DNA of 64,000 nt, taken from positions 32,001-96,000 of the forward strand of contig CAVUWD010000018.1 of the NCBI GenBank assembly GCA_963745025.1, read 5' to 3'. Both the position numbers and the translations under genes were made by a program. The notes under the pieces are model-generated. The model was not told where the DNA came from. It saw only the letters and a program-made list of their open reading frames with translations, and searched no databases. Positions 3,765-50,699 of the stretch are shown piece after piece (positions within the stretch are counted from its first letter, which is position 1; each line of letters opens with the position of its first letter). This DNA is from an uncultured delta proteobacterium (lineage in GTDB: Bacteria > Desulfobacterota > Binatia > JACPRU01).

Positions 3765-4440
3765 CTACTGCTGCAACACTTGCTGCAACACTCGCAGAAC
3801 GTCCGCTATCAACTCCTGCGCGTTCGGCTGCGAGCGTGGAACTCCGAACGAAAAATCACCCACCTGCCACCCGGCTTGGCCATCGACGAACTGGATCCGC
3901 AGACGTGCGTCCGGGACCTTCTCGAAACTAGCCGTGTAATCGACGTTCACGACGTACCGGAGTCCCTCCGGAGGCAGACCTCCGCCCACACCGACCGCGA
4001 GGACCTTGCCGGGATCTCGCACGGGGCGATACTCGCGGAGCTTGCCGATCCGTTGCGACAACAGCCGCAGGGAGGAGCTCGGGTCGCGGCGGGATTTTGC
4101 GAGCACGCTTCCCGTTTCGGACGCCGGATAGGCGAAGAGAAGGGCTGCTTCGTCGAATCGACCGGAGGCGAAAAGCTCCTAACAGATGGTCGGCGCTCGC
4201 CTGCAGTGCTCCGAGCGGGGGTCCCACGTCGGCGACGTGCGGCGTCGCACGATCGCCCGCCGGTTCCTCGCTAGCCGCTGATTCCGGTTCGTTCTCGATC
4301 CGCGTGCTGCCCGGAGGGGGGTGGTCCCCGAGGTAAGGCTGCCCACTCGGCGTCCGGTATTTCGGGATCGTGTCAGCGCACGGCTCGCCCAAAGGCCAGA
4401 GCAGAACTGCCGCGGCGCAGAGTGCGACCAACAGTCGGAT
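3765..4440 (-). pseudogene. DUF4124-like secreted protein, frameshifted and lacking a clear start
   Basis: Signal-like RLLVALCAAAVLL plus KYRTPSGQPYLGDHPPPG; removing one base from the A-run at 4171-4174 joins it to ORF 3765..4106. Confidence 0.55.
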
Positions 4441-28368: not shown

Positions 28369-29094
28369 TCAGCCGATCAGCTCGAGGATCTCGGGGATCC
28401 TGCGGATCACGTGATGAGGCTTCTCTCGGTCGACGGGAGGCTCGCGATCCCCGCGATGCCAGAGCAGCACCGAGCGGAGCCCGGCGCGGTTCGCTCCGGC
28501 GATGTCCTGTGAGAGCGAATCGCCGACGAACAGCGCTTCGTCGGCCCGGCATTCCGCGCGGCGAAGCGCTTCGGCGAAGATCTTCGAATCGGGCTTGCAG
28601 GAGCCCGCCCGCTCGCTCGACAGCAGCCAGTCGAAGTAACGCTCGAGTCCCGCGAGTTCGCCCAGATGCTCGAGCTGTTCTTGGTCGATGTTGCTGACGA
28701 TTCCGAGGCGGAGGCCGCAACGGCGGAGCTCCGTGAGCGTTTCGGGCACGCCCTCTCGCAGGCGGAAGTCGCGACGATGGAGCTCCCACTGCGAGCGACG
28801 GTAGCGCTCGAGATGATCGGGGTTCGCCTCGGAACCGAGCTCGCGTAGCATCTCGATCGCGGCGTCGCGAAACATGTCGCGGTGGAGGTAGAAGCTTCGC
28901 TCGAGGTACATGCGAAACACGCGCCGCAGAGCATTGCGGTACGCGAGCTGGACGGAGCCCGCGTCCGCCGCGCAGCCGGCCAGCTCGGCGAGCATCTGCA
29001 AGCTTTCGCGGTCGCCGGGCGCGAGCGTGTCGTAGTCGTAGAGCGTGCCGCCGAAGTCGAAGAGGACGGCGCGAAGGGGCCGCGTCGGCGTCAT
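28369..29094 (-). CDS. HAD-family hydrolase
   Basis: FDFGGTL, VSN, KPD, VGDSLSQDIAGA. Confidence 0.9.
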   Translation of the reverse strand: MTPTRPLRAVLFDFGGTLYDYDTLAPGDRESLQMLAELAGCAADAGSVQLAYRNALRRVFRMYLERSFYLHRDMFRDAAIEMLRELGSEANPDHLERYRRSQWELHRRDFRLREGVPETLTELRRCGLRLGIVSNIDQEQLEHLGELAGLERYFDWLLSSERAGSCKPDSKIFAEALRRAECRADEALFVGDSLSQDIAGANRAGLRSVLLWHRGDREPPVDREKPHHVIRRIPEILELIG

Positions 29095-47910: not shown

Positions 47911-49058
47911 TTCAGAATCTCCTTGGCGATGGTGTTCAGCTGCATGTTCGAGGTGCCTTCGTAGATCTTGCCGATCTTCGCGTCGCGATAGAACTTCTCG
48001 ACCGGGAAGTCCTTGGTGAAGCCGACGCCGCCGAAGACTTCCACCGCCATCGAGGCCACGCGCTCGGCGACCTGCGACGAGTAGTACTTCGCCATCGCCG
48101 CTTCCTTGAGGAACGGCAGGTCGGCCTCACGCAGGCGCGCCGCGTTGTAGACCATCAAGCGCGCCGACTCGACCTCGATCGCCATGCGCGCGAGGTCGTG
48201 CTGCACCGCCTGGAAATGGGAGATCAATTGTCCGAACTGCTTTCGCTCGTTGGCATAGCTCCGCGCGGCCTCGTACGCACCGCGCGCTAGGCCGATCATC
48301 TGGGCACCGATGCCGATCCGTCCTTCGTTCAGCGTCTCGATCGCGACCTTGTAGCCTTGCCCCACCTGGCCGAGCACGTTGGCTCGTGGCACGCGGCAAT
48401 CCTCGAGCAGGAGCTCGCACGTCGAGCTCGCGCGGATGCCGAGCTTGTCCTCCTTCTTGCCGACCGAGAAGCCGGGGAAGGAGCGCTCGACGAGAAACGT
48501 GGTGATGCCCCGGTAGCCCTTGGCCGGGTCCACGGTCGCGTGCAGTACGAAGAGGCCGGCCTCGGCGCCGTTGGTGATCCAGAGCTTGCGCCCGTTCAGC
48601 CGGTACGAGTCGCCGTCGAGCGTGGCGCGCGTAGCGAGCGCGAACGCGTCGCTGCCCGATCCGGCCTCGGAGAGCGCGTACGCCCCGACCGTGTCGCGCG
48701 CCAGCTTCGGCAGGTATTGCCGCTTCTGTTCATCGGTCGCCCAGCGCAGCAGCGCGTTGTTGACGAGCGTATTCTGCACGTCGACGAAAGCGCTGACCGA
48801 GGGATCGACGCGCGAGAGCTCCTCGATGGCGAGGATCGACATGAAGAACGACGCGCCGGCTCCGCCGTGCTCCTCCGGAATCTCGATCCCCATGACGCCG
48901 ATGTCGAAGATCTCTTTGATCAGCGCGCGATCGAGCGAGCCGTCACGATCCATCTTCTCGACCCGCGGGCGCACCTTCTCTTCAGCGAACCCCCGCACCA
49001 TCTCCTGGAACTGACACTCCTCCTCGCCGAGCGTCGTCAGCGCCTTCGTGGAGCTCAT
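47907..49058 (-). CDS. Acyl-CoA dehydrogenase (short/branched-chain type)
   Basis: ALSEAGSGSDA, RDAKIGKIYEGTSN. Confidence 0.95.
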   Translation of the reverse strand: MSSTKALTTLGEEECQFQEMVRGFAEEKVRPRVEKMDRDGSLDRALIKEIFDIGVMGIEIPEEHGGAGASFFMSILAIEELSRVDPSVSAFVDVQNTLVNNALLRWATDEQKRQYLPKLARDTVGAYALSEAGSGSDAFALATRATLDGDSYRLNGRKLWITNGAEAGLFVLHATVDPAKGYRGITTFLVERSFPGFSVGKKEDKLGIRASSTCELLLEDCRVPRANVLGQVGQGYKVAIETLNEGRIGIGAQMIGLARGAYEAARSYANERKQFGQLISHFQAVQHDLARMAIEVESARLMVYNAARLREADLPFLKEAAMAKYYSSQVAERVASMAVEVFGGVGFTKDFPVEKFYRDAKIGKIYEGTSNMQLNTIAKEILK

Positions 49059-49199
49059 TTCGTTCCTCTCTCCTTCTTCGGCATTCGGCTCTCGGCCATC
49101 GGCCAGGACGTCGCGGTGCCGAACGCCGACAGCCGATCGCCGATAACCTCCTATCGAATCCGCCGCGCGCGCGCCACCGCGAGCCCGGGGCTTCGTCGG

Positions 49200-49427
49200 C
49201 TAGAGGCCGAGCAGCGCTTCGAGCTTCGGCCGATCGAAGCCGACGACCGGCTGCTCGTCGACCAGGATCACCGGCGTAGCGCGGAAGCCCATGTCGAGAA
49301 GCTCCTTCCGCGCCGCAGGATCCGTCGCGACCACTCGCTCGGTGAAGGCGATTCCTTTTTGCGAAAGAAACTCTTTCGCTTGCTTGCAGGGAGCTCAGCC
49401 GGGGTTCGTGTAGACGACGACGTTCAT
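49200..49427 (-). CDS. Glutaredoxin/NrdH-like selenoprotein (UxxC)
   Basis: MNVVVYTNPG-UGA-APCKQAKEFL...ATPVILVD...VGFD...LLGL; GGAGG RBS; hairpin 3' of the UGA. Confidence 0.9.
49361..49379 (-). promoter_or_regulatory. Putative bacterial SECIS hairpin
   Basis: GCGAAAGA-GTT-TCTTTCGC beginning 15 nt after the UGA. Confidence 0.7.
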
Positions 49428-49493
49428 GACTTCCTCCCGTCTTCAGGATATGGGCGCAAACGTATAGACGGAAGGGGCACGGAGGTGACGCCA

Positions 49494-50699
49494 ATGGGAC
49501 CGCTTTCGGGAATCAAGGTCGTGGAGATGGGGATCTTCGTCGCCGGCCCGGCCACCGCGGCGGTGCTCGGCGACTGGGGCGCCGACGTCGTCAAGATCGA
49601 GAACCCGGCCGGCGGCGACCCGATCCGAGCGCTCGTGTCGCTCGGCCTAGTGCCGGTCGAGCCCGACGTCAACAGCGCCCTCGAGCTCGAGAACCGCAAC
49701 AAGCGAAGCGTCGCCGTCGACATCACCAAGCCCGAGGGTCGCGACGTCGTGCTCCGCCTGCTCCGCGACGCGGATGTCTTCGTGAGCAACCTCCGTGCCG
49801 GGGCGCTGGAGCGCGCCGGGCTCGCCTACGAGGACGTCAAGAACGTCAATCCGCGCATCATCTATGCGACGCTCAGCGGCTACGGCACCCGCGGCCCCGA
49901 CAAGGATCGCGCGGCCTTCGACTACGCGGCCTTCTGGGCGCGGACGGGCGCGATGGCAGCGCTCGCCGAGCCCGATCGGCCGCCGCCCACGCAACGCCCG
50001 GCGATGGGCGATCATCCAGCCGGCCTCCAGCTCGCGGGCGCGGTGTCCGCCGCGCTCTTCCACCGTGAGCGCACCGGCGAAGGCCAGGCGATCCATCTCT
50101 CGCTCTTTCAGTCGGGCCTGTGGATGATGGCGAGCGACATCGAGATCGCGCTCGTCATGGGAGTCGGCCACTCGCCGACCGGACGGCTGGTACCGAACCC
50201 GCTGTGGAACCACTACCAGGCGAAGGACGGGAAGTGGTTCCATCTGGTGATGATCCAGGCGGATCGCTTCTGGCCGAAGTTCTGCGCGGCGATCGGGGAG
50301 CCGGAGCTCGCCGAGGACGAGCGGTACGACGGCGTCGTCAAGCGGGGACGCCACGCGCAGGCACTGATCGACAAGCTCGATCGCGTGTTCGCGACGAAGA
50401 ACCGGGACGAGTGGGCCGCGATTTTCGACCGCTACGAGCTCATCTGGGCGCCCGTGCAAACCGTGCTCGAGGCGTCACGCGATCCGCAAGCGCTCGCGCT
50501 CGGGATGTACGAGACGCTGCAGCATCGGAGCGGTCGCGAGATCTCTCTGGTGCGAACGCCGGTGGAGTTCGGGGCCACGCCCGCCACCATCCGCTGCGGC
50601 GCGCCGGAGCTCGGCGAGCATACCGAGGAGGTGCTACTCGCTCACGGCTACGGCTGGGAGGACATCGCCAATCTGCGGGAGAAGGGAGTGTTCGGGTGA
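49494..50699 (+). CDS. CaiB/BaiF family III CoA transferase
   Basis: AGP..LGDWGADVVKIE, NRNKRS, APELGEHT. Confidence 0.94.
   Translation: MGPLSGIKVVEMGIFVAGPATAAVLGDWGADVVKIENPAGGDPIRALVSLGLVPVEPDVNSALELENRNKRSVAVDITKPEGRDVVLRLLRDADVFVSNLRAGALERAGLAYEDVKNVNPRIIYATLSGYGTRGPDKDRAAFDYAAFWARTGAMAALAEPDRPPPTQRPAMGDHPAGLQLAGAVSAALFHRERTGEGQAIHLSLFQSGLWMMASDIEIALVMGVGHSPTGRLVPNPLWNHYQAKDGKWFHLVMIQADRFWPKFCAAIGEPELAEDERYDGVVKRGRHAQALIDKLDRVFATKNRDEWAAIFDRYELIWAPVQTVLEASRDPQALALGMYETLQHRSGREISLVRTPVEFGATPATIRCGAPELGEHTEEVLLAHGYGWEDIANLREKGVFG

Follow-up and report, generated by a model that had tools for sequence, protein, structure and literature searches.

We analysed a stretch of 64,000 nucleotides from an uncultured delta proteobacterium (the window), on the minus strand of which a frame running from 49427 to 49200 is broken only once, by a TGA at codon 11. 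With this TGA read as selenocysteine (Sec, U), the translation is MNVVVYTNPG-U-APCKQAKEFLSQKG...LEALLGL, a product of 75 residues. The coding sequence was delimited from the sequence and its translation, a Pfam match and the dN/dS ratio, and the start and stop codons were read from the sequence. The features of the gene are as follows:

49433..49437, minus strand: Shine-Dalgarno sequence GGAGG, with a 5-nt spacer to the ATG
49200..49427, minus strand: coding sequence (CDS) of the predicted Sec-containing glutaredoxin-like redoxin, 75 residues
49427-49425, minus strand: start codon ATG
49395..49397, minus strand: predicted Sec codon TGA (codon 11), which opens the motif U-A-P-C
49386..49388, minus strand: TGC codon of the putative resolving cysteine, Cys14, invariant in relatives
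49361..49379, minus strand: predicted bacterial SECIS hairpin, with an 8-bp stem (49379-49372 with 49368-49361) and a GUU loop (49371-49369)
49202-49200, minus strand: stop codon TAG

An earlier note on this DNA had described most of these features, and they were found as placed: the GGAGG ribosome-binding site and the ATG at 49427 on the minus strand, the TGA at the first Cys of a CxxC motif, a stem of 8 bp with a G-led loop beginning 15 nt past the TGA, and a 75-residue product, to which our read-through translation is identical. The note's statement that the gene is absent from the ORF track also holds, the table-11 ORF list containing only a 44-aa fragment of the redoxin frame with a GTG start (49200..49334). 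A 780-codon plus-strand ORF (48357..50699) overlaps the redoxin gene. Its family match, to CoA-transferase III, is confined to residues 383-756, which leaves the first half of this ORF as a shadow frame of 66%-GC DNA, antisense to the acyl-CoA dehydrogenase (ACAD) gene and the redoxin; the ORF is real from about codon 383. Scans of 48900-49700 gave no promoter-like site and one plus-strand terminator-like site, which lies inside the CDS and is within shuffle expectation.

The read-through protein matched the Pfam family PF00462 (Glutaredoxin) with an E value of 2.3e-15 and 57 bits, passing the gathering threshold of 22.9, and residues 3-59 of the query aligned with positions 1-58 of the 60-position profile, in agreement with the glutaredoxin membership claimed for it before. 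No NCBIfam model attained its curated cut-off for the window protein. The best match was the YruB-family glutaredoxin-like model (TIGR02196; 73.6 bits against a cut-off of 88.55), which aligned residues 3-73 with positions 2-73 of its 74; the others were NrdH-redoxin (TIGR02194; 56.6 against 85.75), the Uxx-star models NF041212 (52.6 against 66), NF041114 (26.7 against 72) and NF041211 (43.7 against 100), and the glutaredoxin 3 model (48.2 bits, under its cut-off). The window protein is a small glutaredoxin/NrdH-like redoxin that lies outside every NCBI naming model. Among solved structures, the best match was PDB 7c10/7c12, titled 'Glutaredoxin' (E 1.9e-21; residues 2-75 against 4-77). A hand count found 41 of the 74 aligned positions to be identical (~55% identity), and residue 11 of the query, encoded by the TGA, aligns with residue 13 of the 7c10/7c12 chain.

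The TGA is conserved well beyond the window. Of the 12 best matches in 61 related genomes, the window gene among them, 11 carry exactly one TGA. Thirty loci were compared at the column of codon 11, where 11 have TGA and 19 have TGC or TGT. In 10 of the 11 TGA loci, inspection by eye revealed a purine-rich Shine-Dalgarno sequence ahead of a start codon that stands 10-12 codons before the TGA; the feature is not clear in L018. One genome per species was then scanned with alignment A1, and the best 80 loci of 154 relatives came from metagenome-assembled genomes (MAGs) titled Binatia, Methylomirabilota/NC10, Rokubacteria, Syntrophobacterales, Chloroflexota, Acidobacteria and Clostridia. The Sec column is TGA in 73 of these 80 loci, a share that leans towards Sec forms because the peptide overlapping the hairpin served as one of two search patterns. 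The remaining seven read TGC (2), TGT (2), TTA (1), TGG (1) and GGA (1), the GGA codon of L085 being extrapolated from a match that spans only query residues 12-75. TGA at the homologous column was found in 83 loci from several phyla. Cys14 is invariant in alignment A1, and codon +3 encodes Cys in 83/83 TGA loci.

The nucleotides on both sides of the TGA carry a coding signature. Summed entropies at codon positions 1, 2 and 3 are 6.17, 4.70 and 12.62 over the eight codons upstream of the TGA, and 31.8, 28.7 and 52.4, the same pattern, over the 39 codons downstream; the codons before the TGA thus evolve as coding sequence. The dN/dS ratio against the 80%-identical ortholog of genome G005 is 0.27. 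Furthermore, a different study yielded a 1428-nt contig that spans 49196-49700 and shows seven differences, none of them at the TGA. The two changes inside the CDS, at Ala12 (GCT to GCC) and Gln59 (CAG to CAA), are both synonymous. A 210-nt contig of X2 is identical over 49227-49436; it possibly derives from the source sample and was not counted as independent. None of the public runs contains more than 0.46 of the sampled words.

The predicted hairpin, GCGAAAGA-GTT-TCTTTCGC (49379-49361), has the RNA form GCGAAAGA-GUU-UCUUUCGC and places its loop 23 nt from the UGA. The bacterial SECIS model, as laid out in the excerpted text of a 2026 review (PMC13188914), allows 3-9 nt in the apical loop and 4-16 bp in the upper stem. 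It further asks for a G within the first two positions of the loop, with G or U as the usual next base, for 16-37 nt from UGA to loop, and for a minimum free energy of at most -7.5 kcal/mol. With its GUU loop of 3 nt, stem of 8 bp, distance of 23 nt and energy of -8.6 kcal/mol, the window hairpin agrees with all four criteria in this text, so that the SECIS-like geometry asserted earlier is borne out by published values. Folded alone, the hairpin has a z score of -3.29, and 4 of 200 shuffles fold as well; in a 61-nt context folding is not significant (z -0.98; 31 of 200 shuffles as good). Searching 48800-49800 against Rfam (E up to 10) gave five chance-level matches, the best at E 2 and none at the hairpin.

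The real support for the predicted hairpin is comparative. Across the 76 distinct 48-mers of the 83 TGA loci, each stem position forms a pair in 69-76 sequences; 61 have GTT as the loop and 15 have GTA. In alignment A2 (83 rows, 75 distinct), standard pairs occupy 98.0% of 600 cells; sliding the partner by 1-3 columns lowers this share to 36.8-78.5%. Compensatory changes on both sides affect three of the eight pairs (AU/CG 51:22; AU/UA 59:12; one AU to CG; 36 cells), and 0 of 500 shuffles reach any of the pairing measures. All of these counts are inflated, since the structure was itself derived from this same set of related sequences. The hairpin nucleotides also encode a conserved peptide, KEFLSQ, and part of their conservation is therefore at the protein level. 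Third codon positions inside the stem-loop are nearly frozen across the 83 TGA loci, and the Glu codon that contributes its third base as the loop G reads GAG in 83/83. In distant Cys-type glutaredoxins (L019-L037), only 1-5 of the eight hairpin positions pair. Together, the frozen third positions and the poor pairing in Cys-type relatives separate RNA constraint from protein constraint.

Three close homologs have another codon at the Sec column (near 4028-4030) and still keep all eight hairpin pairs, namely L072 (TGC), L112 (TTA) and L113 (TGG). The first may be a recent Sec-to-Cys conversion with a 'fossil' SECIS, and the other two, with Leu and Trp, may be inactivations or assembly errors with such a fossil. 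L016 (TGC) retains seven of the eight pairs.

The genome encodes the machinery for Sec. The assembly is a bin, 92.65% complete with 7.6% contamination, and in it we identified selA (501 bits), the wing domain of selB (70 bits) and selD (385 bits), which lie adjacent to each other on one strand of contig C20 (L001-L003; G000:C20:20417-24790). Among 52 tRNAs, Aragorn detected one tRNA-SeC (anticodon tca) on contig C15. Both contigs match the window's contig, C18, in GC content, and their tetranucleotide profiles correlate with it at r 0.995 (C15) and 0.998 (C20). The selD gene has one in-frame TGA of its own, and SelD is therefore a selenoprotein here too. SelA is also present in both nearest relatives, G001 and G005. 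The genome can thus decode UGA as Sec. TGA is at the same time the commonest stop codon, ending 1151 of the 1767 frames of at least 500 codons, and it also terminates the neighbouring LMF1 and CoA-transferase genes. A genome-wide reassignment of TGA to Trp was rejected, since TGA is the main ordinary stop.

Taken together, these results argue for an intact selenoprotein gene with predicted Sec insertion at UGA codon 11, a reading to which we assign a probability of about 0.9 from the sequence evidence. The earlier note had offered Sec insertion as an inference and had named things that would bear on it, among them genes for selA, selB, selC and selD, of which all are present, selA, selB and selD on C20 and the tRNA-SeC on C15; homologs with TGA or Cys at the same column, which the 11 TGA loci of 30 and the 73 of the best 80 provide; and reads with TGC or TGT in place of TGA, on which the independent 1428-nt contig bears by retaining the TGA. 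Machinery, SECIS geometry, homologs and the independent contig all support that inference.

Under this model, translation would begin at the ATG at 49427, and at UGA codon 11 the hairpin located 15 nt downstream, within the CDS, would recruit SelB carrying Sec-tRNA(Sec), leading to insertion of selenocysteine. The product would be a thioredoxin-fold redoxin of 75 residues with a U-A-P-C site, belonging to the glutaredoxin / YruB / NrdH-like group. By analogy with the clostridial selenoprotein cGrx1, the closest relative that has been characterised, Sec11 would act as the nucleophile in the reduction of client-protein disulfides or sulfenic acids; the mixed selenenylsulfide formed would be resolved by Cys14, and glutathione or thioredoxin reductase would then recycle the oxidised redoxin. 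The anatomy of the gene, the conserved TGA, the hairpin, the Sec machinery and the homology are results of the analysis, from which we infer that Sec is inserted and what the cycle, client proteins and reductant would be. Both candidate recycling systems are encoded in the genome, as a glutathione synthetase (384 bits) and a thioredoxin reductase (395 bits), each above its cut-off. A classical CSFC glutaredoxin is encoded at C16:940843-941037.

The gene lies 141 nt upstream of the ACAD gene and in the same orientation, and from this setting the earlier note had drawn a selenium-dependent link to acyl/lipid metabolism. In one form, the proposal makes the Sec-redoxin the dedicated partner of the adjacent ACAD, lipase-maturation-factor and CoA-transferase genes; in a second form, the redoxin would be co-transcribed with the downstream ACAD and lipase-maturation-factor genes and serve as their dedicated selenium-dependent reductant. 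Between the redoxin and the ACAD gene, the scan found no terminator-like site on the minus strand. In G001, a genome of the same genus, the ACAD and CoA-transferase flanks also adjoin each other and are kept at 90% and 85% identity. If the second form were true, a general Sec-glutaredoxin would have been recruited into acyl/lipid metabolism in this lineage specifically. On the comparisons that follow, the proposed link is not supported, and we consider both forms improbable.

Against a dedicated partnership stands the variety of neighbours elsewhere. When ORFs of at least 100 aa around the 83 TGA loci were clustered, the commonest neighbour was a divergent M28 peptidase with a PDZ domain (25/83), followed by an SDR (19), an unnamed protein (12), a GST (11), a molybdenum hydroxylase (9) and an isochorismatase-family protein (8). 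Only two of the 83 loci, that of the window and L101, have an ACAD as neighbour. The window's other eight neighbouring ORFs, LMF1 and an acyltransferase included, cluster with no other locus, a comparison that is weaker for the CoA-transferase gene, which the ORF picker had split. The ortholog in G005 sits in a different context, with only the redoxin matching the window DNA (83% over 222 nt) and the flanks not. In G001 the flanks persist while the redoxin between them decays: a remnant (L129; G001:C24, about 28700-28900), syntenic with window 49100-49520, has a degraded Shine-Dalgarno sequence, a 1-nt deletion before the TGA and a ~145-nt deletion that removes roughly codons 26-75. The TGA and the SECIS hairpin are still recognisable in this remnant, which represents a recent selenoprotein gene loss. 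Because the redoxin has decayed between kept flanks in G001 and is placed elsewhere in G005, the neighbours and the redoxin do not need each other, and because it has decayed in G001, the gene is dispensable. The window gene most probably encodes a general-purpose, dispensable redoxin rather than a part of a lipid pathway. In six other loci (L062, L068 and others), a PF01451 low-molecular-weight phosphatase/ArsC-type gene lies convergent about 1 kb downstream of the Sec-redoxin, and its product could be a client in that sub-lineage.

The decay seen in G001 also raises the question of whether the window gene is itself a pseudogene, that is, a Cys-type glutaredoxin with a nonsense mutation at its catalytic cysteine, whose translation ends after 10 residues. 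This reading would suit the damage in the same-genus remnant (Shine-Dalgarno sequence and both deletions), the fact that the contigs of the one RNA run cover only 49493-49663, outside the redoxin gene, and the existence of a Cys-type paralog (C-A-P-C; G000:C12:101584-101799, minus strand), which is 46% identical and has no stop and no hairpin at the equivalent place. We nevertheless hold it to be very improbable. A chance nonsense mutation is hard to reconcile with the same TGA in 83 loci across several phyla, with an intact frame behind a Shine-Dalgarno sequence and an ATG, with a dN/dS ratio of 0.27 and a coding signature on both sides of the TGA, with a variant strain that differs by synonymous changes only, and with a full Sec machinery in the genome.

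In the database entries inspected for the family of the window protein, the sequence is truncated past the TGA or has Trp at the Sec position. The database holds 157 relatives at E up to 1e-8, and among the 120 of these that were listed, most are 58-66 aa long and cover 75-84% of the query. We inspected 14 entries. In ten, among them the 44-aa fragment from the window itself, the sequence starts only after the Sec column, and four (P0003, P0004, P0005 and P0007) are full length and have W at the Sec column, in the context …QPG-W-GPC…; Cys at this column occurs in none of the 14. The W entries are most simply explained as gene calls made under a TGA=Trp table, and such Trp-bearing entries mask the selenoprotein in sequence searches. 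Least probable of all is the reading that these entries would support, with 10/14 beginning past the Sec column (44-66 aa) and 4/14 bearing W, namely that the TGA terminates and an internal start yields a shorter protein or that the TGA is read as Trp. The short forms are without strand beta-1 and the catalytic residue and so would not be functional redoxins, the stretch ahead of the TGA shows the conservation of coding sequence, and the use of TGA as the main ordinary stop excludes a global TGA=Trp code.

Other arrangements of TGA-bearing redoxins were seen among the relatives. L025 (G029:C1:2624370-2624579) has a G-U-S-S-C motif followed by a similar hairpin and a C-terminal extension of ~170 residues; together with G040:C177, G008:C33 and G024:C10, it belongs to a set of TGA-bearing glutaredoxin-like domains that open frames of about 250-360 codons, and these long frames may represent a fused Sec-redoxin family. 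Three assemblies, two of them Methylomirabilota/NC10 and one titled 'uncultured bacterium', carry two different TGA-bearing copies each (L039/L053, L051/L070 and L075/L105). A Methylomirabilota MAG with 63 predicted selenoprotein genes is described in the excerpted text of PMC13188914.

On the selenoprotein reading, the genome gains one real gene and one selenoprotein that standard annotation had missed. The Sec-glutaredoxin clade is common in uncultured lineages of soil, sediment and groundwater (by MAG title Binatia, Methylomirabilota/NC10, Rokubacteria, Syntrophobacterales, Chloroflexota and Clostridia), and a dedicated model for it would repair many annotations. The nearly invariant hairpin lying over KEFLSQ offers a clean example of joint RNA and protein constraint, and the intact window gene set beside the G001 remnant provides a snapshot of selenoprotein loss. 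Our understanding of how Sec-glutaredoxins work is unchanged by the window gene.

The closest known system is cGrx1 of Clostridium oremlandii OhILAs (PDB 7c10, 7c12 and 7c13), which according to the consulted sections of PMC7642778 is natively a selenoprotein; its active site is U(or C)PXC, and Cys13 took the place of the catalytic Sec for the structures. The deposited 7c10 and 7c12 sequences read CPHC and CPHS, and on these sequences the two entries fit the dithiol and the C16S monothiol cGrx1 of those sections. Like cGrx1, the window protein is a small single-domain thioredoxin fold; its TGA position aligns with the native Sec of cGrx1, position 13 in the same account, and the clostridial loci L094, L104 and L109 read T-U-P-H-C, as cGrx1 does. 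Unlike cGrx1, it has the active site U-A-P-C rather than U-P-H-C, which falls outside the pattern U-P-X-C and within the general UxxC; its relatives have the motifs U-G-P-C, U-P-P-C or U-P-H-C. The consulted part of PMC4479559 reports work with 'Grx1 (U13C/C16S)' in which Grx, not thioredoxin, reduces the Sec-containing MsrA of C. oremlandii. That MsrA is a client of cGrx1, whereas both MsrA matches in the present genome are without an in-frame stop, and the 'tandem Sec' pairing of Clostridium is therefore not reproduced here. The absence of a Sec-containing MsrA bears on the client and not on the chemistry. The host lineage is also different from that of cGrx1, and high-GC.

Sec-glutaredoxins have been on lists of selenoprotein families since 2005. 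A Sargasso Sea survey reported ten such sequences with predicted SECIS elements (PMC1088965), a 2006 comparative study recorded them in Geobacter sulfurreducens, Alkaliphilus metalliredigenes and Moorella thermoacetica (PMC1794560), and the excerpted 2026 review tabulates the family as Grx, PF00462, UxxC (PMC13188914). The novelty implied by the earlier note was thus overstated, the family being already known from these sources and from the cGrx1 work (PMC7642778) to the extent consulted. Among the papers listed by our literature search there was no report on selenoproteins in Binatia, and the excerpted text of PMC13188914 is without the string 'binat'. The window protein resembles the surveyed Sec-glutaredoxins in its PF00462 match, its UxxC motif and its single Sec, membership of the same clade being shown for cGrx1 only.

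The remaining families resemble the window protein less closely. It shares near-full profile coverage with the YruB family (TIGR02196) and is unlike it in scoring under the cut-off, which makes it a non-member by the NCBI rule. It is like NrdH-redoxin (TIGR02194; PDB 4hs1, 1r7h and 1h75) in size and fold, the structures matching at E 2e-8 to 1e-4, and its C-terminal G-F-D-R-P presumably echoes the NrdH signature. NrdI is a marker of the NrdH/class Ib ribonucleotide reductase system. Unlike NrdH-redoxin, the window protein scores under the TIGR02194 cut-off and comes from a 92.65%-complete genome in which NrdI was not found. The Uxx-star families (NF041212, NF041114 and NF041211) are likewise glutaredoxin-like selenoproteins and gave weak matches over residues 3-65. 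In Uxx-star proteins, as the name has it, the Sec stands three residues from the C-terminus; the Sec predicted here is instead at the N-terminal CxxC position, and the scores are below all three cut-offs. The Sec-glutaredoxin family is thus known, with one member studied at the bench, and to it the window adds a new member that had gone unannotated.
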